Positions 5,230-47,935 of a stretch of DNA of 64,000 nucleotides are shown piece after piece (positions within the stretch are counted from its first letter, which is position 1; the number at the start of each line of letters is the position of its first letter). The stretch comes from Eledone cirrhosa (lineage: Eukaryota), in the NCBI GenBank assembly GCA_964016885.1, contig OZ024754.1:45756001-45820000 (forward strand). The letters run 5' to 3'. The position numbers and the translations under genes were made by a program. The notes under the pieces are model-generated. The model was not told the origin of the DNA. It did no database searches and was given only the letters and a program-made list of their open reading frames with translations.

Positions 5230-5376
5230 TAAAAAGAATCTAGAATTAGCTGTCAAAGAGGTAAGAGCTCAGCCGTCGGGAACCTATTCTTTCTAATATA
5301 GTCACATTCTATTATCCCAACTATCAAGTAGTCTGTTGAATAATGTCTTACTAGTTTAATACCAGCTTAATCCTTA
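5230..5376 (+). mobile_element. Degenerate copy of TA-inserted hammerhead-family-A short element
   Basis: ctagaattagctgtcaaagaggtaagagctcagccgtcgggaacc aligns by eye with agaaatagccgtcgaaacggcttgagctc(a/t)gccgtcggggtc at 41335-41375 and 42365-42406. TA repeats on both sides. Confidence 0.6.
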
Positions 5377-5547
5377 TATATATATTTATATATATATTGT
5401 TTGTGTGTGTATTTATCAGATAAACAAAAATTTCACTTCTCTATTTCTAGCTTAATCGCCTCTCACTGTGCTACGTGGAATATATAATACACGCCGGAAA
5501 TATTTTTAATTGATAGCTGCATGCTTACAAGATAGATGGTAGATGGA

Positions 5548-20197: not shown

Positions 20198-20721
20198 GTA
20201 TTGAAATCCTTTCTTAAAATACACACATTGAGCTAAATTGTATGTTTATTATATATAGCAGGATTTTAACAATTGAAAACAGCAGTAAAAATAGAAATTT
20301 AATTATTTGAAATGTTTGTCAATAGAAATCACATTAAATGAGAATGGCGCAGCTTGTCTTCTCGCTTCATCATAGAAGCCGTTCTAATCATAATACACTA
20401 TAATGATTAATTCATTACTAATGTATTTGCATTGTTTTGTTTTTTTATATGGTTAGAGGTTATTTAGATCCTATATATAAATTATTGATCTATCGGCATC
20501 GTCTACAGTATTATTATAATTATTGGTCTGAACGGACGTCTTTTTGCTCGCTCTCGTAAGTCTATTTATTTACCTGTCAAAACTTATTTATTGAATTGTT
20601 TGTTACAAGCCCTTGGAATTTTCCCTGTGAAGGGGAAAGTATAATATTTGGCGAAATTAACAGAAATTGATACAACAGACACCACCACAAACAACGTGAA
20701 CAAAGAAAACAATGACAACAA

Positions 20722-21650
20722 CTCTGAGAACTCGGCAACTCGGCACCTGGAGAAGCAAGTCCATGCCGTCCAACAGCGTCGTTGGGCGCTGGTCGGACGG
20801 ACCGGTAAAGTTGCTCGGGGTTTGGTTTGGGTCAGACCTCCAGGTGGATAAGAATTGGGACGAGGTGACGGGCAGGATAGCCAGTATCACCCAGAAATGG
20901 GCTGCGAGAAAGCTATCACTGAAAGATCGGGCGGAGGTGGCGAATGCGTACATCGCGTCCGTCATCTACTATCGTCTGACGGTCGTCCCTTGCCCCCGTT
21001 CGCGCCTCGCCATCTTGGAGCGGCTCCTCTTCAAATCCTTGTGGAGGGGTCAGGTTCTGTTGGTGAAGTAGTCCATCTGCTGCCAGCACCCTCTACGTGG
21101 AGGGCTTGGCATGCCGTGGCTAATGATGCGCAGACACGCGCTGAGGCTGCGGCATCTCCAGATATTCTGCCTAAACTGTGAACAGGTCTGGTCGCCGTTT
21201 GTCAGACGGGCCTTTCCGCAACTCGTCTCTTTGACTGAGCTGCAGTCCTGGGTCAAGAAGAGACCGAGACGGGGGACTGGCATCTGGAATGTTGCCAGGC
21301 ACTCATTGCCCTCTACTAGGCGGGAAATGCAGTCAGTGAAACTTCCACTTTCGAGTTCTATAGAGGAGTAGTGGCGGGCAAGTGCGACGACGAAGTCGAA
21401 CTAACCAGTCTGGACTTTCGAGCCGGGGACGATGGATAATTTCCAAACATCCCTCGCTTGGCAGCGCTACCGGGGGGGGGGCACTGCCTGTTCGAGATAA
21501 ACTCTATAGGCACGGAAGCGCTGTCAGACGGACCTGTTCGGGATGCGCGCAGAGCGACGAAACCTTTCTGCTCGCACTCGTCCAGTGTCCGTGAATCACT
21601 GACTTGTGGAGTTATGTCGAACAGCTGTTGTTGCGTGTAGAACGGATCCG
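20722..21650 (+). pseudogene. Tx1/L1-type non-LTR retrotransposon ORF2 fragment (RT C-terminus/thumb and zf-RVT-like zinc finger)
   Basis: GC-rich island. VKLLGVWFG..NW....W..RKLSLKDRAEVANAYIASVIYY...LW...HPLRGGLGMP, then ALPVRDKL...CSGCAQSDETFLLALVQCP. Has a stop codon and frameshifts. Confidence 0.85.
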
Positions 21651-22235
21651 GATTTGTGGTAATGGTAGTAGTCTTATTTATGGACAGATCTGTGCAACAT
21701 GTGTGTGTACACTGTGATTTTCAGGTTGTTCTTAACGTATTGAAGATACTCTTCGTAATATAAGCAGTACCGGGTAAAGGTATGTGACGGATGTGGTTCT
21801 GTTAATGTATCTTTCCGTGTGTATTTTTCACCATTCACATATATTTGTAAGTCCTGGGGTTTTAGTTATGTATCTGTCTGTATTTATATCATTCCCATAT
21901 CACCTATTTTTATAGCTATTGTTTCTGTATTCATTATCGGTATTCCGGTTATTTCTATCTCTGGATCTTTATATTTGAATTATTTCTACATTTTCTCAGT
22001 AGATATATTGTCGTCTGTAGGGATTCATACATCAATTAGAAGACACTTTTCTTTCTTTGTGGTCTTTGACTATAATAATATCGATCGATTGGCTTTGATC
22101 TCCCTGTCTATATGTATTGGCATATTCCAGACTATGGTTGCTTTATCTGACACATTTTTTGGTGTGTCTATTCTTGCTGTTGTTGTTGTTGTCATTGTTA
22201 TTATATTATCATCATCATTATTATTATTATTATCG

Positions 22236-28102: not shown

Positions 28103-29021
28103 TTATACAGCCAGTTCTGGGCTTCTTTAACCCTTTCCTTTTTTACCCCTGTTTTTACATTTCTTTTGTTTTTATCCTTCTTTTGATATTTTCATCATTG
28201 AGCGTGCCGTAAGCTAGAGCTGAATCGAATATAAACGGCAGCCACTTCTAACTCAAATACAAAACACTTTAGTATTTAGAATAAATAAATAAACGTTACA
28301 ACCACAGAATATTTCTCTCCAATGGGAAATTTCAGTATAGAAATTTTTTCAGCCTAGACAATTTTTTAAATATTATTATTGGCACTGTTTATAAGATTTA
28401 TCTTTCTTAAAGCGGATTTATAAAGATGCTAGTGTTAAATCTATATGAGACTGTTAGCTAATATTATATAACACATTTGTGTTGTATACATGATTATATG
28501 TTTGGTATATGTGAGGATAAAAATGAGATGGGGAATTGATATAGAGATGAGGAAATATAAATGAAATAGTTAAGACGTAGTAGTTTATATACTTTGAAAT
28601 CTTAATAAAAATCAGGATAACTGTATCCGAAATATTTTGATCGTAAATCTACTAATTTTTTTTGGCTGACTTGGACATAATCAATAATAGAAATGAGATA
28701 TATGATATTACTACCATTATCATCACTTACAAACTAGCTTTTCCACCCTGAATTCCATCATAATATATTTATATTAATACCATGCTACCCCAAGAACCAT
28801 GAGTACGAACCACCAAAAGGAATTCTTAGCAGTCCGTATATGAAGAGAGCCAAGTTGTGAAATGGTAAAGTGGTAGGGTGAAAGGACTGTGTTGCTGGCG
28901 TCGGATTCCACATCCGAGCGTTGGGGGGGGGGGGGGGGCGTCTCGTGTTTGTTTTATATATATATATATGTGTGTGTGTGTGTAAATATATATGTATAGA
29001 CGTATATTTAAATATATATAG

Positions 29022-29071
<50 letters not shown>

Positions 29072-29075
<4 letters not shown>

Positions 29076-29531
29076 CGTTTCGGAATTTGTTTAGCAAGAT
29101 TCTTTATCTGAAAACGTGTTGAAACCGATATTGTTATGCTTTGGGAGGATCATGTTGCCAATAAGAAACACACGCACCAGTTGCTTTCACTCCAATTTAT
29201 TATAAATTAAATTTATAAATTTCCGGTTGGTTGGTTGGTTGGTTCCACAACCAGACGATTGTTCATATATTGTCAAAGTTCTTTCGTCACACATTCTGTG
29301 ACCTCTTCAGTGACTGGGGATTCTTTTCTTTGTTTACTGAAGAAGTCACAGAATGTGTGACGAAAGAACTTTGACAATATATGAACAATCGTCTGGTTGT
29401 GGAACCAACCAACCAACCGGAAATCTATAAATTCTTAAATTTATAAATTTAATTTATAATAAATTGGAGTGAAAGCAACTGCTGCGTGTGTTTCTTATTG
29501 GCAACATGACCCTCCCAAAGCATAACAATAT
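29072..29531. mobile_element. TA-flanked fold-back element: ~185-195 bp inverted arms, each with a hammerhead core (Penelope-like pseudo-LTR or retrozyme-like)
   Basis: 29128-29311 is the reverse complement of 29337-29531 with few differences. Each arm has CTGAAGA-R-GTCACA(gaatg)TGTGAC-GAAA. Confidence 0.8.
29330..29388 (+). ncRNA. Type I hammerhead ribozyme motif, weak stem III
   Basis: Stem I ttgttta/tgaacaa (7 bp with one G-U), CTGAAGA 29338-29344, 6 bp stem II, GAAA, and an AUA triplet before the 3' arm of stem I. Stem III pairs poorly. Confidence 0.65.
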
Positions 29532-30093
29532 ATATATATATATATATATGTGTGTGTATGTATGTATGAATATATATGTACATTTATGTATATATGTACA
29601 TGTATATGTATATATATGTGTCTGTGTATGTATAGGTTTGCCTGTCTGTGTAACGTATATGAATATATATATATATATAATTGTATAATAAAATATAGAC
29701 AGTGAAGTGGCTAGTTGTTAGACTGACAATAGACAGACACAGAGACTGACATACACACAGACTGACACACAGACATACTGACAGTCAGGCTGACACACAG
29801 ACAGACTGACACACAGACAGATAAAAAGACAGACAGACGAAGAGGCGAATATATATTATTAGACTGATTTATATAAGTTCGTGCTTTCACAAAATTGACG
29901 CCACAATTTCTTTTTAAATACCTGATTGTCAGCAAAGATCGATAAATAATTACATATGATGCACTTAAAGTATGTTCAAGATTCGTCCGTGACCTGGTTC
30001 CAACGATGGTAAACTCTACATAGAGGTAGAATTTCAATTAGTTATCAATAAATATTCTAGAAGGAAATTAATGTAATATAAACAAAAATAGGA

Positions 30094-30475
30094 CAATGTG
30101 TTGAGACAATATTCTACAAGAATCAATGTAGTAGTGATGGGGAAGTTTTCTTTTTAAAAAGAAGGGGGTTTTATATTACTATATTACGTGTTCCAGAATG
30201 GGGGCTGAGGCCAAGCTGAGGCACCGCCATTCTATATATTGATTCATACATACATTTGTGCTGTAGAATATTGTATAGAGTGGAATATATATTAGCGTTA
30301 TTAGCGGGTGACCAGGAAACACAGATTTGAAAGACATAGTAAGCTGCCTAATGTAATTACCCTAATCAGACCATTATATACTACACTGTCTCTATAATAG
30401 GCTACAGTACATACGTATATATGATTCCATATGTAGTAAACCTTGATTCTTGTAGAATATTGTCTCAGTACATTG
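30094..30475. mobile_element. MITE-like element with 33 bp terminal inverted repeats
   Basis: caatgtgttgagacaatattctacaagaatcaa (30094-30126) versus ttgattcttgtagaatattgtctcagtacattg (30443-30475); inner 25 bp perfect, 2 mismatches overall. No TSD seen. Confidence 0.7.
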
Positions 30476-30568
30476 AGTTGTATTGAATACGCACGGGGGT
30501 TCTTCCCCTTTTTTCTCACATTTTCTCTGTCACTTCCTTCCTCTTACCATTCTTTAGTTTCTAACTCT

Positions 30569-30606
30569 ATCTTCTGATGAAGGACTAGTGTCCGAAACGA
30601 TGAGAC
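30569..30606 (+). ncRNA. Minimal type I hammerhead motif (family B) with one core mutation
   Basis: atctt-CTGATGA-A-GGAC(tagt)GTCC-GAAA-CG-AT-gagac. The homologue at 38201-38236 has the canonical CG-TT. Confidence 0.7.
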
Positions 30607-30685
30607 TCTTTTGCTGCTATTGCAAGCTTTAAACTAATATATTTCTTTCATGTACTATGCCGTTTGTTTTATTATTTTTTTTACC

Positions 30686-30716
<31 letters not shown>

Positions 30717-31205
30717 GATATAACATATATATATATATAACATACATAAATGAACAGGTATAGATATATCTATGAGGTGTAAATACATATTTCTATAATT
30801 CAAGAATGTATTACGTACGCCATTCCGCTTCTCTCCGTGTAATTTAATTATCAAAATTTATGCCATTGGCTTATTTTAGTTATTTCCGTTTAGTCATACT
30901 TTTAAATCATACAATGTAACATTGTGATGTATTTTGTGTTAATATATATGTAAAATTCTTTCTACTGATATGTAGATTTGTTAAGATTTTATGTTGTCTG
31001 ACATTTATACTAATCAATGTACGAGTAAACCATGTTAAGTACTCAATACAATAGTGCTATCATGGTGAGACCATGTCGGTATAAGGTACGAAAGATAATT
31101 ACTACCTGTGACTTATTAAAATATACACACACATTCTCTCTCTCACTTACACATACACACACTCTCTCTCTCGCTCTCTCTCTCTCTCTCACTCTCACTC
31201 TCACT

Positions 31206-31287
<82 letters not shown>

Positions 31288-31620
31288 TTTCCTGACTCTG
31301 GAAGAAATCTGCTGTGACTGGATGTGTTCCACCAGGTTTCAAAATGAAAAGATGAGACCCCCTGCAATTCCATTATGATTTACAAGTCTATACATAATCT
31401 TTAGATAGGAAAAAAGCATAATATGCATATTAATATGACATAACACAATATAATGTACTGTAATATGTAACCATGCTGTGACATATTAACTACATGTGTG
31501 TGTATGTGTGTGTCTGTGTGTGTATGTGTGTGTGTGTAACAATATCCGTAGAATATTCTGGTGGTCTGGTGAATATTGGGCCTTGAATTGTTGGGGAGCG
31601 CTTTTGTTCCTTGTATGAAC

Positions 31621-31621
<1 letters not shown>

Positions 31622-31675
<54 letters not shown>

Positions 31676-31761
31676 TATATATATATATATAATATTATAT
31701 ATATATATATAATATTATATATATATATATATATAATATTATATATATATATATATAATAT

Positions 31762-31792
<31 letters not shown>

Positions 31793-31855
31793 TATATATA
31801 TAATATTATATATATATATATATATAATATTATATATATATATAATATTATATAT

Positions 31856-31887
<32 letters not shown>

Positions 31888-31931
31888 ATATTATATATAT
31901 ATATATATATAATATTATATATATATATATA

Positions 31932-31971
<40 letters not shown>

Positions 31972-31987
31972 TATATATATATATATA

Positions 31988-32027
<40 letters not shown>

Positions 32028-32182
32028 TATATATATATATATATAATATTATATATATATATATAATATATATATATAATATTATATATATATATATATA
32101 TAATATTATATATATATATATATAATATATATATATATATATTATATATATATATATATATAATATTATATATATATATATA

Positions 32183-32222
<40 letters not shown>

Positions 32223-32238
32223 TATATATATATATATA

Positions 32239-32278
<40 letters not shown>

Positions 32279-32294
32279 TATATATATATATATA

Positions 32295-32352
<58 letters not shown>
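31622..32352. repeat. (TA)n array with ATAT/TTAT phase shifts
   Basis: Direct reading. Confidence 0.97.
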
Positions 32353-32357
<5 letters not shown>

Positions 32358-33689
32358 GAGAACAAAACGAACACAGGGCGAATGAAAAAATGCATTTTAC
32401 TTTCTCTTCAGCCATCTCTGAACAATGCACTTTCGTGCATAAGTATGATAGGCTGGTATTGCATGATATTGAGCTCAAGTTGCACGACGGCTTTGATGAA
32501 GCCACCGGGAGGATACATATGAGACAACACAGCAACATAGAGACAGGATACAACAGCTGAGTATCTTTCGACTACGACAGGATACGGTACAGACATGTTG
32601 TGCAACTGGGAACGACATAGAGAGGAAAATATAGTTTCCTCAAGAAAGAGGAGAGACGAAATAAATAGAGAGAGAGAGAGAGAGCGTTGTCGAGCTGAGA
32701 AGTAAAAGTTAGTTAGTCAAAGAAGCATACATCATCGCTGAAAATAGCAGCCACATAGCGAATTGAAGAACAATAGGGTTGTTCTAGAAATACTAGGAAA
32801 AGGAAAATGTGCTTGTAAAGATTTCAACGGTGTTGGTCTTTGTGTAGTAGGTATCTGGCATGAATCTACACAACAATATGTAGTGCGGTCCTTAGTGAAA
32901 GAAAATTCAATCCATTTGAGAGATTGAGATTTTTTTTTTTTTTTTTTTTTGCTCTTCCAAATTTTAGATAAATTTGTGTTTTCTAATCATAAAGTCTAAT
33001 AAATAAAGATACAAAGGAAAGGACAAACATGTCGTGTTGATATTTCATATAACTTTGCAGAAATTGTGTTTATTTAATCACAAACATTAAACATCTAATT
33101 AAATATTATTACAAACAATTATTAATTTTCGTCGGATTCCAAAAACGCCGCTGAAGTTAAACGAAATCATAAAGGTGAGAGAAAAAGAAAATTTATGGTG
33201 TGTTTAGATAGTTGGTATATGTGTAGTTATAAATTACTGGATATTCATTATTTAGTTAGGTGTAACTATATGTTTGGCTATAACTCAATTAATATATTTA
33301 CATGAGTAATATCAATATCATATATTAAAGTATTCCATCATCCATGTAGATTGAAGGAAATTTTACATGGCTGTACACAAGAAATCAGCTCCAATGTTCC
33401 CTTTATTTATGCAATCTTTTTGTCGTGTATTGAACTCGTATTGAGCGCTGAGTAATTGTTTAAATATCTAACGACAGCCAATCATATCACAATCATCTGT
33501 TTCAAGAGTGCTCCTGTTTTTTTGCCTATATAGTATGCTTCAGCTCAATTAAATCGGGATACAGAATCCGATCCATCAGGTTTGAAGTACAGACTCCATT
33601 TTCATATATAAATATATATATATATATATAAACAACTATATATATATCCTTCGAATGAAACAGTTCTAGTCCTGTCGAAGCCATTTCTA

Positions 33690-34800
33690 TATTAAATATT
33701 TATACTCTGTTTTCCATTCTTTGGTTCTTTGCTAGATATATCTGCTGCAACTCAGAAGATATTTTATAGTTTACTTGTTGAAAATATCTAACACCATTTC
33801 CCTGTGTCTGTGATGAATATATTCGTTATATGCCAGATTTCGTACAGTCTCTTCTAAATGAAGTTATTGCTTTTCTCGTTTATTTTTCTGTCAAGTCTTG
33901 ATAATTCATTTGGCGCAAGAGTTGAGAATATTATAAATTTAACTTATTACTGGATCAGATACAGTATTGACGCCTATTAACATGTTTTGTATTTAGCTTT
34001 CTATGAATAATTAATCTAATGCATCTATAATATTCCTTCCTGAGCTTTTCTTATATTTATGTTATGTAGGCTGTCTAGCTCATGGAAATGCCTGTATGTA
34101 TGTGTATGTGTATATATCTGTGTATTATTAGTACATTACTTTCCTAGTCTTCATCTATTTGGTTTAGCTGTCTTATCTCTTTGTTAGTATCAGACATGTC
34201 ATCAGTGTTCTTAATTTCATTTCCCTCTTCAAGATGGTATTCGTACATTTCATTGTACCTGAATCACATCAATTTCTCTACTAATTGAATGTACTGATAG
34301 CAGTAAAGTTCATTTAGATTTTGGTCTGCTGTCTTTATATAGATGATTCCATTCAGTTAGTAAACCTATCTTGGTTAGATCCGGCTTAACATGTTAGATA
34401 AAAGACTTAGCGTTATGTAGAGATGTGTTTGGAATAGGGACTCCCCTTCTACTTTTCCTGTTCTTATAGAAGAATATCTGTTATTTTACCATGCCATCTT
34501 TTGTCTATAACTGCAGGATTGTTTGTCATTAATCCATGACGTGATCCAATGTATCAGTATTGGTGCCACCTTAAATATGGGGAATACCTCTAGAACCGAC
34601 CACTGAGGAGACAGTCAAACGTCTCCTCTCAGTCCATCCATGTAATACACTAACATTTGTTTTACAATCTTCGCTAATGATGATCAATTAAATATCTTTT
34701 CTTAAGGAAATTCGGTGTCTTTATTTGTTTTTTGTTTGTTTGGTTTGTTTTTAAGACATTTATTTATCTCAAACGATTGTGTTGGTGACAAGATGCTGAA
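33690..34800 (-). pseudogene. Highly decayed R4/Dong-like non-LTR retrotransposon RT region
   Basis: Minus-strand pieces in expected order: IFKVAPILI, GESLF..LY.TL.LLSNML, EKLRKEYYRCIRLII..KLN, NMLIGVNTVSDPVIS, NELSRLDRK. They resemble the recalled R4/Dong motif EYxxRxxxIxxxxLN..NKIxAINxxAxPVxxY...ELxxLDRKTRK. Confidence 0.6.
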
Positions 34801-35721
34801 CTTTCTCTGTGGATCGCAGTAACTATCAAAGACCTGCAGCTGTCCATCCTCTAAGTCTCACTTCTCAGCGTCACCTCTATTGACCGAGAGAAGGCCAAAG
34901 ACCAATACAGTTTGTCACCGTTATTATCACAGGAGACACCAGAACTGAAATAAGTCTTGTACTGCTTTAACATTGCTTGAAGACTTTCTTTTAGGTGTGG
35001 TATAACTGCAAAGCACTACATGAACAGGTTTTCAAGACTGACAAGTTTGACCCACCTGTAGTATTAGTTTTACCATACCAGCACACGCCTTTTTCCAATT
35101 TTCCTGTTAGTGGCAACAGTCGCGGCGAGCTTAGTGACTAAGGTGTACAAGAAAGCCATGAGTTGGACTTGGCTGTCAGAATACTTTGAAACTTGTGTTA
35201 AGTACATTTATAGAAAACATGTAAACCAAGAATTCATTCTACATTCATTAGTATTAATGAAATGTATAGAACAGACTGCTGTCATGTGAAATAATATCCA
35301 AACAGATATGTTATAAATTTCTTAAACAACGTGATATTTAAAATAACAGAAAATATGTAATAATATTTACAATTTCAAATATCTTTTGCAACGTTTATAT
35401 GACATACAAAACAGATATTTATCAGAATCAGAAATGAATAGAATTACATGTGTGTCAAAGATTAAGATGATTACACACCCACACATACACACACACATAT
35501 TTTACATCTCTGTGTGTATATATATATATATATATTTATTTATATATATACACACACAAACAGACAGAGTGATGTAAATCCCGACCGTGGCGCCAAGTGG
35601 TCTCAGGATTGTGTACTTCCATTATTAGTCTATGATTACTGTTGTCTCCAGTCTCAGAACCGCAGAGAGAGAAAGAATGAGAGATAGATAGAGAGAGTGA
35701 GAGCCTCTATCTCTCTCTCTG

Positions 35722-35784
<63 letters not shown>

Positions 35785-35829
35785 TGGTGAAGTGACGGAC
35801 GTGGGAATATATTCTCCATACTGTAGTTT

Positions 35830-36052
35830 AATAATGATTTCTACTATAGACACACGTCCAGCAATACTGGTGAGGGAATAGTTGATTAAATCGGCCCCAG
35901 TGCATTACTGGTACTTTATTGTATCGACCTAGTAAGGGTGAAAGGCAAAGCTAACCTCGGCAGGATTTGAACTCGGACCGTAAAGGGTCGTAACTCTATG
36001 CTGCAAAGCATGGTGCCCGACGTTCTACCGATACTGCTAATCCACTGCCCTG
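35830..36052 (-). mobile_element. tRNA-derived SINE, full length
   Basis: Tail, core ggtgaaaggcaaagctaacctcggcaggatttgaactc, and head ctaatccactgccct. Confidence 0.9.
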
Positions 36053-36287
36053 AAGTAGTTTAATAATCTTTATTAAGGCTGAGGTGAAAGTCGTGTTGCT
36101 GTTGAGTGTCACCCGTATTCACAGAATGATCAGACAAGGCAATGTTGGGTGTTGATCATGTAAGAACCAAGGTAAAACTCCGGAGAAACAAGACGCTTCA
36201 CGTAACCAGAATAAATATTCTCTCTATATATATATTTGTATATATATATACTGTATATATATATATATGTGTGTATATATATATATT

Positions 36288-36352
<65 letters not shown>

Positions 36353-36388
36353 AGTAAGAATATTTTCGAAACAGCGAGTTGATTTGAA

Positions 36389-36567
36389 ATTATTAGAAAT
36401 GTTAGCTATCGCCGTATTTTGACTAAAGCAATTAAAGAAATTATTTAGCCTTGTACGTCAATACTCATCTTTTTCCATTTCTCCAAGGGTTCTTAACCCC
36501 ACTATCAGGCTAAATAATTTCTTTAATTGCTTTAGTCAAAATATGGCGATAGCTAACATTTCTAATA

Positions 36568-36569
<2 letters not shown>
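36389..36569. repeat. Inverted repeat with 63 bp arms and 55 nt spacer inside a TA-flanked island
   Basis: 36389-36451 versus 36507-36569, one mismatch (gccgtat / atatggc). Confidence 0.93.
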
Positions 36570-36602
<33 letters not shown>

Positions 36603-36665
36603 TATATTTGTGATTTAACACTTCACTGCTAGCAAATGTTTTTTAAGCTTCATATTATGTCTCCC

Positions 36666-36736
36666 TATTTTATCTGATGAGAACGCAAATATCATCCCAT
36701 GATGATATTTGTTTTTGAAATGCGCATAATAAAATA
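36666..36736 (+). ncRNA. Type I hammerhead ribozyme, structurally complete
   Basis: Stem I tattttat/ataaaata (8 bp perfect); CTGATGA 36674-36680; 16 bp stem II gaacgcaaatatcatc(ccat)gatgatatttgttttt with one mismatch and two G-U pairs; GAAA 36717-36720; palindromic stem III ATGCGCAT; AUA triplet with predicted cleavage after 36728. Confidence 0.88.
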
Positions 36737-36857
36737 CATGGAACTCTTTTAACCATCTTTTGATCTTATATTATTTATACTCCAGTCCTATAGAGTGTTG
36801 AGTGCTACTTATCCGATATTTGCATTGCTTTATTGAGCTGCAATACATCTTACCTCC

Positions 36858-36888
<31 letters not shown>

Positions 36889-36893
<5 letters not shown>

Positions 36894-37005
36894 AACGAGT
36901 AGGACCCCAGGGGTCCTACTCGTTCCTATTACCCACTCTACTACCCTAAGTATTGAGTACTTTGGTGCGTTATGTTCCACCTGGTTCCTTACCACATTTC
37001 CTCCG

Positions 37006-37008
<3 letters not shown>
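36889..37008 (+). mobile_element. Family-A short element beginning at the predicted ribozyme cleavage site, with a 20 bp terminal fold-back
   Basis: ataggaacgagtaggacccc-a-ggggtcctactcgttcctat is a perfect hairpin. The body 36910-37008 matches 41369-41467. TA arrays on both sides. Confidence 0.85.
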
Positions 37009-37040
<32 letters not shown>

Positions 37041-37083
37041 GTACACATACATATATTTTTATATATATACTGTACACACACAC

Positions 37084-37130
<47 letters not shown>

Positions 37131-37328
37131 TATTGAAGTTTGCTTGAAGCATTGTGGAATAATAAGGTAAATTTCTTTAAGTCGTTTGGAAGCCTCGACA
37201 ATGCAGATGGGTAAATCTCCGGGTAACAAGATCCGGTGGTGGAGAGAGATATGTAAGTGGGTGTACGTTGAGATGCGTGGCGTGTAGAAGACTGTAGCGT
37301 GTAGAATGTAGGAAAGAGCGTAAAGGAT

Positions 37329-37382
<54 letters not shown>

Positions 37383-37839
37383 CATAGAGAAGGAGAGTGA
37401 TATATACATTTGTGCGTGTTCTTGTATATATATAGATAGATAGGAGGATAGCGTGATAGACAAATTGATAGATAGATAAAAGAAATTTTCCTCGTCAATA
37501 AATATTTTATCGCGTATATAAATGTATTGCCTGACAATGCTGTAACCGGCAGAAATCAATGGTACTTCCACAGCAGCGTCAACATTTCCCTTATCGTTAC
37601 TTACCTCTTCATCTCCTTTTTTCTTCAAGAGAGTTGATGACATATCAAATGTCAGTTTGCTTAGAAATACGAAGAAATAAAACTATTTTTCTCTGCATAT
37701 GCGAGAGATCGGAAATGTTAACATTTTCACTTTCTTTAAACCAAACGTTAAAGATTTTCCTTCATTCGGAATAACACTACAGAAAATATGTCGCCTCAGA
37801 ATTCTTCATAGTAAAAACATTTGCTGTTGAAATAAGAAA

Positions 37840-38030
37840 ATAATGGTTTCTGATTTAGGCACAAGGCCAGGAAATGAGTACATAATAAAACAATAATTTA
37901 AACTTTGGGAAGAAGGGGAAGTAATTTAGGGAAGTGAAAGGTTGATTGTACTGACCTTAGTATTTGACTTTTACTTTAATTAACCAAAGACGATGATAGG
38001 AAAATTTGATCTTAGAACATAAAGGGCTGG
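37840..38030 (-). mobile_element. Old diverged SINE copy
   Basis: Tail ggtttctgatttaggcacaaggccag and weak core/B-box remnants. Confidence 0.55.
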
Positions 38031-38109
38031 AACCGATATATATCTATAAATGTATTATAATATATAATATAATATAATACATATATATATATATATGTGT
38101 GCGTGTGTG

Positions 38110-38327
38110 TTGGTGTAAAGGGTAGACAGAAATAACAACACAATCAGTACAGTATATGGAAGGGATATATTAGGTTAACGCTTGATATAACAGGAAGAGC
38201 GTCTTAACGTTTCAGACGCTAGTCCTTCGTCTATGGTCATAAACGGAACAAACGTGGTAGCCAAGGTTTCAAAGCCCAATTTTGACCACACTTCCAGAGG
38301 GAATAAGAATTGTAACCTATTTTCAAT
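38110..38327 (-). mobile_element. Family-B hammerhead-bearing short element (homologue of ~30570-30690)
   Basis: Minus strand reads TAGACGA-A-GGAC(tagc)GTCT-GAAA-CGTT-aagac, then caagcgttaacctaatatatcccttccatatact, matching caagctttaaactaatatatttctttcatgtact at 30623-30656. Confidence 0.7.
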
Positions 38328-38445
38328 ATATATATATATATATATATATGAGAAGAATTGAGTGCTGCGTGGTTGCACATGGGTTACATATGAATAAAAT
38401 TAGTCCTTCATCAGTGATTTTCCCACATTCATTGGTATTTCATCG

Positions 38446-38498
<53 letters not shown>

Positions 38499-38583
38499 CA
38501 GAGAGACAGAGACAATGGAGATATCTCTATATTTCATAGGTTGAGTGGTCTCTCGGCTTTGAATATTCCTTTCGAAACTACTC

Positions 38584-38622
<39 letters not shown>

Positions 38623-39409
38623 CGGGCGAATGTTTGTGTGTGTATTAAGAGGAAGTGTTTAGTTTATATATATGGATATTCTTGCATTTGTCTCATTATA
38701 ATATCAATGTAAAGATTATCGTTTGTTATACACACTTGCATACCAATACAGCTTAAATATATAAAAAAAAATCCCACAACGACAAAAGTCCAGACGCCAC
38801 GCAGTCTTTTTTCTCTGTGTTCTTATAAATCTAAACATTTGGTTCTATTCAAGTATACAAAAGGTCACAACGTGCACAATATAAACATAAAATACGTAAA
38901 TACGTAGTAGTCGTTCAGGTTTGTATTTGAATATATTTTCCCTACAGACCAGTAGATAAAGCTGTTTACTTCTATCTTCGCAGATATTTTGGAAATCTCT
39001 TCATAAAAGCGTCTCTATCTTTGGAGATATAATTGTTCTTATATGTTTTGGTAGTTCCATCCGTTTCTGTTGATAATGATGATGTTGCTGTCGTCTTTAT
39101 TTGTTGACTGTCGTTGTTATTGTTGGTGGGGGGTGTAGTAGTTGGTCTCACGGTATTGTTTTTGTGGATGGTGGTCGATTTGGTGTCGTTGTTACTAGTG
39201 GTATTGATTATGTAGGTGGTTGTCGATGTTGTTAATAGTAATGATGGTGTAAGTGGTGATAATAATGGTTCTATTGATCCTGATGGTATTGGTGATAGCA
39301 GTATGTGGTGGGGGCTAATGAATTTGGCGGTGGTACTAATGGTGATTGCGTGGTTTGTGAGACAGTGAGACAACAACAAGAAGGTGAGTTACCGACACAT
39401 TATATATAT

Positions 39410-39440
<31 letters not shown>

Positions 39441-39455
39441 ATATATATATATATA

Positions 39456-39644
39456 TAATTGTTTCTACTTTAGGCACAAGGCCAGCAATTACCAGTGCAT
39501 TACTGGTACTTTATTTTATCGACCCCGTAAGGATGAAAGGCAAAGTCAACCTCGGCGGGATTTGAACTTAGATCGTAAAGGGACGTAACTATGCTGGAAA
39601 GCATGGCGTCCGACTCTCTACCGATAGTGCCAATCCACCGCCCT
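39456..39644 (-). mobile_element. tRNA-derived SINE, left arm of a head-to-head inverted pair
   Basis: Full SINE in reverse orientation. Confidence 0.93.
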
Positions 39645-39661
39645 TGAAATATATATATATT

Positions 39662-39850
39662 GGCGGTGGATTGGCAGTATCGGTAGAGGGTCGGACGCCA
39701 TGCTTTCCAGCATAGTTACGTCCCTTTACGATCTGAGTTCAAATCCCGCCGAGGTTGACTTTGCCTTTCATCCTTACGGAGTCGATAAAATAAAGTACCA
39801 GTAATGCACTGGTTAATTGCTGGCCTTATGCCTAAAGTAGAAACAATTAT
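39662..39850 (+). mobile_element. tRNA-derived SINE, right arm of a head-to-head inverted pair
   Basis: Full SINE: tggcagtatcgg (A-box-like), gagttcaaatcc (B-box), core, tail. About 6 differences from the left arm. Confidence 0.93.
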
Positions 39851-39931
39851 ATATTTATATATATTATATATATTTATATATATTATATATATTTATATAT
39901 ATTATATATATATATATATATTTATATATAT

Positions 39932-39962
<31 letters not shown>

Positions 39963-40052
39963 ATATATATATATATATATATTATATATAAAATTATACA
40001 TATATATTATATATATATTATATATATATATATATTATATATATATTATATA

Positions 40053-40097
<45 letters not shown>

Positions 40098-40115
40098 ATT
40101 ATATATAAATATATA

Positions 40116-40159
<44 letters not shown>

Positions 40160-40316
40160 ATATATATTATATATATTATATATAAATATATATATATTAT
40201 ATATATATATATATATTATATATATATATTATATATAAATATATATATATTATATATATATATATATTATATATATTATATATATATATATTATATATAT
40301 ATATATATATTATATA

Positions 40317-40380
<64 letters not shown>

Positions 40381-40407
40381 ATATATATTATATATATATA
40401 TATATAT

Positions 40408-40460
<53 letters not shown>

Positions 40461-40531
40461 ATATATATTATATATATTATATATATATATATTATATATT
40501 ATATATATATATTATATATATATATATATAT

Positions 40532-40584
<53 letters not shown>

Positions 40585-40612
40585 ATATATTATATATATA
40601 TATATATATTAC

Positions 40613-40685
<73 letters not shown>

Positions 40686-40706
40686 ATATATATTATATAT
40701 ATATAT

Positions 40707-40738
<32 letters not shown>

Positions 40739-40740
40739 AT

Positions 40741-40775
<35 letters not shown>

Positions 40776-40875
40776 ATATATATATATATATTATATATAT
40801 ATATATTATATATTATATTATATATATATATATATATTATATATATATATATATATTATATATATATATATATAT

Positions 40876-40930
<55 letters not shown>

Positions 40931-41008
40931 ATATATATTATATATATATATTATATATATATATTATATATATATATATATTATATATATATATATATTA
41001 TATATATA

Positions 41009-41076
<68 letters not shown>

Positions 41077-41147
41077 ATATATATATTATATATTATATAT
41101 ATATATTATATATATATATATATATATTATATATTATATATATATAT

Positions 41148-41179
<32 letters not shown>

Positions 41180-41185
41180 ATATAT

Positions 41186-41219
<34 letters not shown>

Positions 41220-41243
41220 ATTATATTATATATATATATATAT

Positions 41244-41298
<55 letters not shown>

Positions 41299-41324
41299 AT
41301 ATATATTATATATATATATATTAT
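39851..41324. repeat. ~1.5 kb (TA)nT array
   Basis: Direct reading. Confidence 0.97.
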
Positions 41325-41467
41325 ACGGCTTGAGAAACAGCTATAGAAACGGCTTGAGCTCAGCCGTCGGGGTCTTACTGGTTCCTATTACCCACTCTAC
41401 TACCCCAAGTATTGAGTACTTTGGCGCGTTATGGTCCACCTGGTTGCTTACCACATTTCCTTCGTTA
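41325..41467 (+). mobile_element. Family-A short element with the 3' half of a hammerhead
   Basis: agaaacagctata-GAAA-CGGCT(tgagctc)AGCCG-TC/ggggtc: canonical GAAAC...GUC stem III, truncated within stem II. TA arrays on both sides. Confidence 0.82.
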
Positions 41468-41483
41468 TTATATATATATATAT

Positions 41484-41515
<32 letters not shown>

Positions 41516-41516
41516 A

Positions 41517-41561
<45 letters not shown>

Positions 41562-41609
41562 TTATATATATATATATATTATATATATATATATTATATA
41601 TATATATAT

Positions 41610-41658
<49 letters not shown>

Positions 41659-41664
41659 ATATAT

Positions 41665-41697
<33 letters not shown>

Positions 41698-41897
41698 ATT
41701 ATATATATATATATTATATATATATATATATTATATATTATATATATATATATATTATATATTATATATATTATATATATTTATATATATATATATTATA
41801 TATATTTATATATATATATATTATATATTATATATATTTATATATATATATATTATATATATATATATATATATTATATATATTTATATATTATATA

Positions 41898-41942
<45 letters not shown>

Positions 41943-42227
41943 ATATATATTATATATATATATATATATATATTATAAATATTTATATATATATATTATA
42001 TATATTTATATATATATATTATATATATTTATATATATATATTATATATATTTATATATATATATTATATATATTTATATATATATATTATATATATTTA
42101 TATATATATATTATATATATTTATATATATATATTATATATATTTATATATATATATTATATATATTTATATATATATATTATATATATTTATATATATA
42201 TATTATATATATATTATATATATATAT
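41468..42227. repeat. (TA)n array between two tail-to-tail family-A elements
   Basis: Direct reading. Confidence 0.97.
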
Positions 42228-42420
42228 AACAAAGAAATTGTGGTAAGGAACCAGATGGACAATAACGCACAGAGTACTCAATACTTATGGTAGTAGAGTG
42301 GGAAATAGGAAAAAGTATGACCCCGACGGCAGAGCTCGAGCCGTTTCGACGGCTATTTCTGTCCAGAAATAGCCGTCGAAACGGCTTGAGCTCTGCCATC
42401 GGGGTCATACTTTTTCTTCT
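42227..42420 (-). mobile_element. Family-A short element with a 52 bp fold-back centred on hammerhead stem II
   Basis: 42309-42360 and 42365-42416 are inverted with 2 mismatches around the loop gtcc. The minus strand reads GAAA-CGGC(tcgagctct)GCCG-TC/ggggtc followed by the family-A body. Confidence 0.87.
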
Positions 42421-42438
42421 ATATATATATATATATGA

Positions 42439-42519
<81 letters not shown>

Positions 42520-42666
42520 TATATATATTTATTTATATATATAAATAAATATATATATATATATATATAAATAAATATATATATATTTATTTATATATAT
42601 AAATAAATATATATATATATATAAATAAATATATATATATATATTTATTTATATATATATAAATAA

Positions 42667-42707
<41 letters not shown>

Positions 42708-42739
42708 TATTTATATATATATAAATAAATATATATATA

Positions 42740-42781
<42 letters not shown>

Positions 42782-42795
42782 AATATATATATATT

Positions 42796-42875
<80 letters not shown>

Positions 42876-42877
42876 AA
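42421..42877. repeat. (TA)n array with TAAA/TTTA blocks in both orientations
   Basis: Direct reading. Confidence 0.95.
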
Positions 42878-43549
42878 ATATTAAAAAAATAATGAATAAA
42901 ACAATGAAACAGTTCCTTATATTAAACAAAAAAAGTTCATTATTTAACGATCGTTTCTAGGATATATATGTGTTAGAATTGGCATGCATATTCAACAGAT
43001 CTATGTACAAAATTATACAAAATTATACAAACTATCAAGATGAAATATATATACCAACACATATATGCCGTCTTCAGAAATAATGAAATATATTTATTGA
43101 TAATAACAACAATTCAAAATTACAGGTCTGTTTGGGAACAGAGTTCAAATTGACCAATGAAAACACAAAAAGTTTATACAGTTAGGTGTGTGTATATATG
43201 TAAGTGACTTCGTTCACAGATATGCATAAAAATATATATATATTCACATGCATACGCATGCCGAAAAGATGTATGTAAATACAAAAATTCAAGGCTAATA
43301 TCTCTGTATGTTTATAATCTACAGATAAAATACCTATACGCATATAAATATAAAAAATAACAAAATAAAAAAATAAATATATACACACATTCATATACTC
43401 ACACATATACGTACATTCACACACACACGCGCGTATACCGAAAGTGATTTTTCATTGCATCTCTTCTTTCCATGATATCCGGACTACATTGAGTTCTTCA
43501 TACGGATTGGACACTACCGTAAACTCTTGGTAGATTTATCTACATAATT

Positions 43550-47534: not shown

Positions 47535-47716
47535 ATAATAATGTTTTTCTGATTTAGTCACAAGCCAACACTTGTTTTTTGTTTTGGTAGGGGGAGGTGA
47601 AAGTTGAAACAATCCACCCTAGTGTATTACTGGTACTTTACTTTATCAACCTCGTAAGGATGAAAGGCAAAGCTAACTTAGAATTTGCCTTTCATCCTTA
47701 CGAGGTCGATAAAATA
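47535..47716 (-). mobile_element. SINE fragment ending in an internal fold-back of its core
   Basis: tttatcaacctcgtaaggatgaaaggcaaa-gctaacttagaa-tttgcctttcatccttacgaggtcgataaa (about 30 bp arms). Confidence 0.85.
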
Positions 47717-47935
47717 ATAATAATGGTCTTTGATTTAGGCACAAGGCCAGCAATTTGGAGAGATCGATAAGTCAGTGGTATCGATCTCACTATTTGACTG
47801 GCACATTATTTTAGAGATCCCAGTAGGGGGATAAGCAAAGTTAATCAAAGCTAGAACTAAAATCCGACTATAAATTACGACAGAAATATCCCAAAATATT
47901 TAACGGATGGTCTATCGATACTAACAAACTACCTT
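47717..47935 (-). mobile_element. Old diverged SINE copy
   Basis: Tail tgatttaggcacaaggccagcaattt and decayed core and head. Confidence 0.6.

Follow-up and report, generated by a model that had tools for sequence, protein, structure and literature searches.

A head-to-head hairpin joined at a predicted hammerhead cut site in an abundant, likely Penelope-like repeat family of Eledone cirrhosa

The 64-kb stretch of Eledone cirrhosa DNA analysed here, referred to below as the window, is AT-rich and full of microsatellites. At 36889-37008 it holds a short repeat (copy A) that opens with a hairpin, two arms of perfectly complementary sequence (20/20 bases) separated by a single A (Table 1). The hairpin, 36889-36929, is markedly stable on folding (z = -6.0, with 0 of 200 shuffled sequences equally stable), and its outermost three base pairs (ATA/TAT) are indistinguishable from the TA flank. 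Copy A has a total length of 120 bases and represents one copy of an abundant mobile-element end, three further copies of which (B, C and D) occur in the window; all four lie in (TA)n and share a common far 3' end. The initial annotation described a 20-bp hairpin around one A, starting right after the GUC of the sister copies, and both the pairing and the register are confirmed, position 36910 corresponding to 41369 of copy B, the first base after GTC. It also reported that the sister copies carry a motif up to GUC/G; we find this motif, GAAACGGC..GCCGTC, at two places, 41346-41368 (+) and 42325-42347 (-), and in none of 100 shuffles.

Table 1. Coordinates of copies A-D and of the control pairs in the window
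Feature	Position	Strand	Description
Copy A inverted tail-less arm	36889..36908	-	From near 3' end (41388 in register) to predicted cut; adjoins (TA)n
Copy A central base A	36909		Sense strand of the arm has T where copies B and C have C
Copy A direct arm	36910..36929	+	From first base after GUC to near 3' end
Copy A 79-nt tail	36930..37008	+	Between near and far 3' ends; followed by (TA)n
Copy B	41326..41467	+	93% like copy A over 99 nt; crosses predicted cut 41368/41369; without long inverted arm
Hammerhead-like 3' half in copy B	41346..41368	+	GAAA, stem of 6 bp closed by a palindromic loop, GUC
Copy C tailed long arm	42228..42361	-	Crosses predicted cut 42325/42324
Copy C apex (2 nt) with tail-less inverted arm	42362..42422	+	Arms 55/57 identical, one 2-nt indel
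Copy D, old and diverged	5242..5378 (approx.)	+	In (TA)n; crosses predicted cut; 68%, E 2e-4
Control pair, second family	29074..29531		In (TA)n; arms 179/184 identical; one arm alone tailed (54 nt, 29074-29127)
Control pair, third family	36351..36569		In (TA)n; arms 62/63 identical; spacer of 55 nt; one arm alone tailed (38 nt)

Copy C is a head-to-head hairpin in its own right, 57 bp long. Because its turn lies 37 nt upstream of the predicted cut, both of its arms pass the cut; the inverted arm holds a second GAAA with its stem and terminates in (TA)n at the near 3' end. The inverted arms of copies A and C end at one and the same element position (41388), 20 nt past the cut, where they meet (TA)n. 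At the variable sites 41375, 41380 and 41381 the arm of copy A has the letters of copy A and the arm of copy C those of copy C, which indicates that in each case arm and body came from one insertion. The same letters bear on a second proposal of the initial annotation, deletion of a ribozyme core that was flanked by the arms of a natural stem I of 20 bp. In its favour, no intact 5' strand of this stem was observed; against it, each arm mirrors its own copy at the variable sites, the arm adjoins (TA)n at a known 3' end with no upstream element sequence beyond, and stem I in such ribozymes measures 4-6 bp in the accessible text of Cervera and de la Pena (2014, PMC4209133), all of which leaves core deletion hardly credible. 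Copy B and copy C are oppositely oriented within about 2 kb of compound TA repeat (40805-42893). The first seven letters of copy B (41326-41332) are nearly missing from reads, with a depth of about 17 against thousands just downstream, and may represent a private duplication, a small fold-back or a deleted stem.

The ends of the family were mapped by aligning sequences from four of ten listed runs to copy B (41308-41485) at 80% likeness: two contig sets of one sample (X1, X2), raw RAD reads from another sample that bears an identical species label (X8) and, from another organism, 27 contigs (X4). Matches amounted to 11181 and 10233 contigs in X1 and X2 and 21985 reads in X8; depth here does not equal copy number, and thousands of matching contigs and reads show that the family is abundant. 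Loose ends in (TA)n occur behind 41388 in 89 and 88 contigs of X1 and X2, 3157 reads of X8 and two contigs of X4. A second set, behind 41468, comprises 82 and 89 contigs and 2329 reads, with a further 2615 behind 41483. Two fixed 3' ends, both bordered by (TA)n and about 79 nt apart, thus characterize the family, a near one at 41388 and a far one at about 41467, 20 and 99 nt from the predicted cut, respectively. An inverted arm starts at the near end and a direct arm at the far end, and one is accordingly tail-less and the other tailed. As the outer end of the copy A arm is this alternative fixed 3' end, the 20-bp length of the hairpin reflects only where the join falls. A common subfamily diverges just past the predicted cut (41375-41381); its loose ends, lying before 41382, number 213 and 169 in the two contig sets and 2281 in the reads. 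A tail-to-tail joint through (TA)n, 41388-41483, is present in 45 reads with 11 starts.

One-sided tails are not peculiar to copies A and C: in all four TA-embedded head-to-head pairs that three families, this one included, have in the window, one arm is tailed and the other tail-less. The pair at 29074-29531 carries a complete minimal-hammerhead core in both arms (CTGAAGA at 29304-29310 on the minus and 29337-29343 on the plus strand), with a 6-bp stem II, a bulged base and a G-C closing pair, and it is joined upstream of both cores. The pair at 36351-36569 lies 320 nt from copy A, and its right arm loosely resembles, by eye, one long upstream loose end in X4. Two full-length SINE-like copies stand head to head at 39455-39850 with a 19-nt TA-rich spacer; their arms are 183/188 identical, far closer than other copies of that family (about 74-86% alike over long matches), suggesting one insertion in which both arms stop at the RNA's 5' terminus. 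The family has about ten pieces in the window, among them a shortened head-to-head pair at 47638-47717 (32/34 identical, 12-nt spacer); presumably it has tRNA-like A and B boxes, judging by their consensus, and ARAGORN found no tRNA in it at 39455-39850. A GC-richer stretch with broken frames at 20580-21720 resembles a LINE remnant; two of its frames had no significant match in Pfam.

The comparison of pairs also speaks to the reality of the hairpin. A chimeric inversion introduced in the library or in assembly has to be considered, since the reads were aligned to copy B and not to the copy A locus, and assemblies are described as struggling with complex Penelope insertions in the available part of Craig et al. 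(2021, PMC8557442). Such an artefact is nevertheless very improbable: the copy A arm terminates at a biologically fixed site, the arms of the other pairs have already diverged (55/57, 179/184 and 62/63), and opposite-strand joints are also contained in raw reads of another sample.

By its layout the family is likely the end of a Penelope-like retrotransposon. It shows an inverted 5'-truncated copy (A, C and eight read joints), a one-sided tail (A and C) and (TA)n at all four copies, and the initial annotation's view of a retrotransposed element with an inverted 5' copy, inserted into TA repeats, is borne out by this layout and by the (TA)n-bound ends. As far as the accessible sections go, Craig et al. 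(PMC8557442) describe for endonuclease-positive Penelope-like elements an inverted truncated copy, a 30-40-bp one-sided tail and a bias to (TA)n, known for several clades, and Arkhipova et al. (2013, PMC3846280) palindromes of 18 and 38 bp at the 5' ends of pLTRs, from which self-priming was inferred. These elements and the family are thus alike in the inverted 5'-truncated copy with a junction palindrome, the tail on one end only, the (TA)n targets and the lack of a clear target duplication, and differ in tail length (30-40 nt as printed, 79 nt here) and in that the copies here measure only 100-140 nt, with no ORF found. No long copy that might display a partial tandem pLTR-ORF-pLTR arrangement occurs in the window. 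Membership rests on layout because no reverse-transcriptase or GIY-YIG ORF is tied to the family: no ORF with a Penelope-clade reverse transcriptase and GIY-YIG was found beside the window copies, and a frame open through the copies (synonymous share 13/27, P 0.085) led to no longer protein, its one match among 1.84 billion being irrelevant and repetitive. Searches with ten short motifs against the Naiad, Chlamys and Hydra consensus files of Craig et al., in which line breaks can hide matches, and with five against the accessible part of the supplement of PMC13282606, which contains no library, gave 0 matches, as did exact-pattern scans of metagenome and viral contigs for the family. The structure is of a known kind and the family itself is probably new.

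A different origin would be mobilization by a LINE-type enzyme of a repeat that is short and non-autonomous, its single cDNA having snapped back on itself ahead of joining the target, with GAAA..GUC incidental. Neither an ORF nor a complete ribozyme was found for the family, 5' junctions of this sort are reported for R2 (PMC11204384, accessible part), and the SINE-like family of the window forms head-to-head pairs too. Against this, snap-back leaves unexplained the common stop of the copy A and C arms, at which thousands of reads meet (TA)n, and the one-sided tails in three families. Moreover, the tail-less arm of copy C outreaches the tailed arm on the 5' side by two letters, both of which match the upstream letters of the family in reads; a short arm that outruns the long arm cannot be produced by fold-back of the long cDNA, the match of two letters arising by chance in 1 of 16 cases. 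We therefore regard a LINE-type origin as improbable.

The 3' half of a hammerhead is recognizable in copies B and C: GAAA, a 5-6-bp stem closed by A15.1-U16.1, a palindromic loop and the GUC triplet, with predicted dimers at -32.1 (copy B) and -28.3 kcal/mol (copy C) against -7.8 and -7.2 for the monomers. The cut site is a prediction from half a motif. CTGANGA was found adjoining none of the four copies, nor in B, C and D at the 7-17-nt spacing of Craig et al., and CUGANGA is also missing from the upstream loose ends in reads (30 letters each, of which about 23 upstream of GAAA are well supported). A read consensus of low agreement (0.63) and the first letters of copy B, which C-type fold-backs mimic, hint at an 11-bp stem II that would be centred where copy C turns; if present, such a stem would place the CUGANGA core beyond the 30 upstream letters. 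A Type II permutation with the core downstream of GUC was rejected, the element body containing no CTGANGA. Rfam gave 0 matches at gathering score in the window, and its 101 weak matches in 28800-43000 include none to a hammerhead family, which says little, as it also misses the complete hammerhead motif at 29337. In the accessible parts of Cervera and de la Pena (PMC4209133), which define a minimal hammerhead motif and describe opposite-strand motif pairs 100-700 bp apart, the minimal type I form shares GAAA, A15.1-U16.1, a palindromic loop 3 and GUC with the present copies. The pair at 29074-29531 fits that motif in full, whereas the family of copies A-D lacks CUGANGA 7-17 nt from GAAA, its stem III of 5-6 bp is stable as a monomer, and its 11-bp stem II is conjectural. 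Of the ribozyme that the initial annotation placed at the end of the copy, then, a hammerhead-like 3' half is present and the CUGANGA box was not found, and for want of that box the family should not be filed as a hammerhead ribozyme.

Copying from RNA that had cleaved itself should leave joins concentrated at GUC/G, and the initial annotation proposed a breakpoint count as a check. Run in part on reads, this check gave no peak at GUC/G, with the RAD restriction-site bias favouring cut-spanning copies (8463 of the 21985 X8 reads start at an AATT site upstream of the cut). Nowhere in 41308-41485 do a fifth of the molecules begin or end. Summed depth in X8 over four bins of 41350-41373 runs 13032, 13579, 13865 and 14022, so the gain across the bin of the cut is 1.1%, less than in the preceding bins, with no step at the cut, and 41369 is absent among the 24 of 511 loose-end positions listed. 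Contig depth in X1 and X2 is a smooth ramp shaped by mismatches to copy B and was used neither for copy number nor for breakpoints. The reads hold 11 joints, nine of them between opposite strands (eight head-to-head and one tail-to-tail), and in 7/8 head-to-head joints an arm reaches 41347 or further upstream, past the cut. The alignment to copy B breaks at 41333, 41339, 41346/41347 and 41382; joint ends at these positions were not treated as breakpoints and serve only to show passage through the cut; short arms can escape detection as joints, and the letters between joined arms come from the best 12 of 31 entries.

Among the five joint ends that do not coincide with alignment breaks of copy B is that of the X8 joint 41369-41377, one arm of which ends exactly at the cut (seven reads, three starts, 20 letters on the shorter side). 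It comes from another individual and is probably a second locus, or possibly an allele of copy A. A dominant peak at the cut is excluded in the X1, X2, X4 and X8 data, and a minor peak at 41369 is possible. The initial annotation's idea that the hairpin marks a cleaved end is not supported as a rule, given that copy C joins 37 nt upstream and three of the four window copies span the cut. Were joins spread evenly across 50-100 positions, the chance that one copy in four falls precisely on the cut would be 4-8%, and that it comes within one base of it 12-22%. With sister copies joined elsewhere, the join at the predicted cut is weak evidence of self-cleavage, and the hairpin is likely ordinary.

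The central base of copy A leans to neither side. Read along the inverted arm, it is a T at the position where copies B and C have the C of GUC, a C that stands in a CpG. The A may thus be untemplated, or else the complement of the family's pre-cut C after a CpG transition. In the latter case the base was templated one step past the cut, which implies uncut RNA, and an untemplated base would fit a cleaved end. Copy A keeps its four other CpGs, and variants of the CpG type in reads stand mostly at 2-6%, with one at 21%, so CpG decay is not the default for this base; neither the templated nor the untemplated reading wins.

We favour, at a probability of roughly 55%, the reading that copy A is a head-to-head pair of 5'-truncated pieces whose join fell at GUC/G through an ordinary stop on uncut or broken RNA. 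The endonuclease of the element would nick both strands of a (TA)n target, and each nick would prime reverse transcription at one of two fixed RNA sites 79 nt apart. Both cDNAs would then extend toward the 5' end and halt at nearly the same place, to be united by a template jump or by end joining. The position of the stop would vary with each insertion, lying for copy C in the loop of the putative upstream hairpin and for copy A at the foot of the GC-rich stem before GUC, within one base of the predicted cut. The foot of a GC-rich stem is an expected stall site for reverse transcriptase. That copying of uncut or otherwise broken RNA stopped at GUC/G would likely explain the join of copy A. The two-primer order of events is suggested by the two apex letters of copy C and by one read joint, 41369-41377, which agrees with separate priming if its 20-letter side is the tail-less arm. 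A point against this account is that both arms of copy A stop at one base, exactly at the predicted cut.

The same coincidence is a point in favour of the contrary reading, which takes up the initial annotation's model as a minority route: the hammerhead would already have cleaved its RNA, each of the two cDNAs would have run off the new 5' end, and joining would have followed the addition of a single untemplated base. Each arm terminates at the base following GUC and a single extra base lies between the two, the X8 joint 41369-41377 also ends at the cut, the kept CpGs of copy A make decay of the central base no default, and no variants at 41346-41349 or 41366-41374 are among the 40 of 139 listed. 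The palindromic loop and predicted dimer are as in Penelope hammerheads (PMC4209133, PMC6765202), and the junctions of R2 preserve a record of where its ribozyme cuts (Eickbush et al. 2013, PMC3774820), in the accessible parts of these sources. Weighing on the other side are the CUGANGA box, found neither beside the four copies nor in the 30-letter upstream ends; the 29 occurrences in the window of a looser half-motif (GAAA, a stem of at least 6 bp, UH); the even depth at the cut, together with the joints and copies that pass it; and the stall at the foot of the stem, which predicts nearly the same base. Self-cleavage is therefore a tentative alternative that we consider possible yet doubtful; all remaining readings together are distinctly less probable again.

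The nearest experimental parallel is the Poseidon element PAc of Anolis (Frangieh et al. 2024, PMC11167929). According to the accessible part of that work, both strands are cut and extended, with two reverse-transcription start sites bounding the tail; uncut RNA is the main template, no RNA-seq reads start or end at the cut, cleavage is dispensable in vitro and ribozyme mutants insert normally, which counts against self-cleavage at copy A as well. PAc and the present family are alike in the two fixed start sites, the AT-rich target and a hammerhead shortly upstream of the 3' ends; PAc has a complete and tested core, whereas here the start sites, 20 and 99 nt from the cut, are deduced from genomic ends only. 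At R2 5' junctions (PMC3774820, PMC11204384, as accessible) ribozyme cuts are recorded, with untemplated bases and inverted cDNA copies. R2 differs in having an HDV-like ribozyme at its true 5' end and a fixed rDNA target, and most of its full-length junctions follow the cut, whereas most copies of the family here pass it. Non-LTR retrozymes (bioRxiv 10.64898/2026.07.22.740005, accessible part) are likewise short, non-coding, high-copy and pLTR-related, but are defined by tandem repetition, every unit containing a full type I hammerhead, whereas the window copies are dispersed, single or head-to-head, with an incomplete core.

What the hammerhead does in endonuclease-positive Penelope-like elements is described as unclear in the accessible text of Craig et al. 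(PMC8557442), and a literature search, with most subscription papers outside its scope, found no report of Penelope 5' junctions at a hammerhead cut. As a single locus copy A proves neither a role of the hammerhead nor a model of the tail. It is conceivable, at odds a little longer than for self-cleavage at copy A itself, that a minority of insertions were copied from hammerhead-cut RNA, with arms primed separately, and that joins at GUC/G are the first genomic record of germ-line cleavage by a Penelope hammerhead in the course of transposition. Since the family has many short head-to-head copies and a near 3' end 20 nt from the cut, one genome could settle the role of the hammerhead by counting joins, and the family also offers a test of models of one-sided tails, setting two priming sites against fold-back with resolution by the endonuclease.
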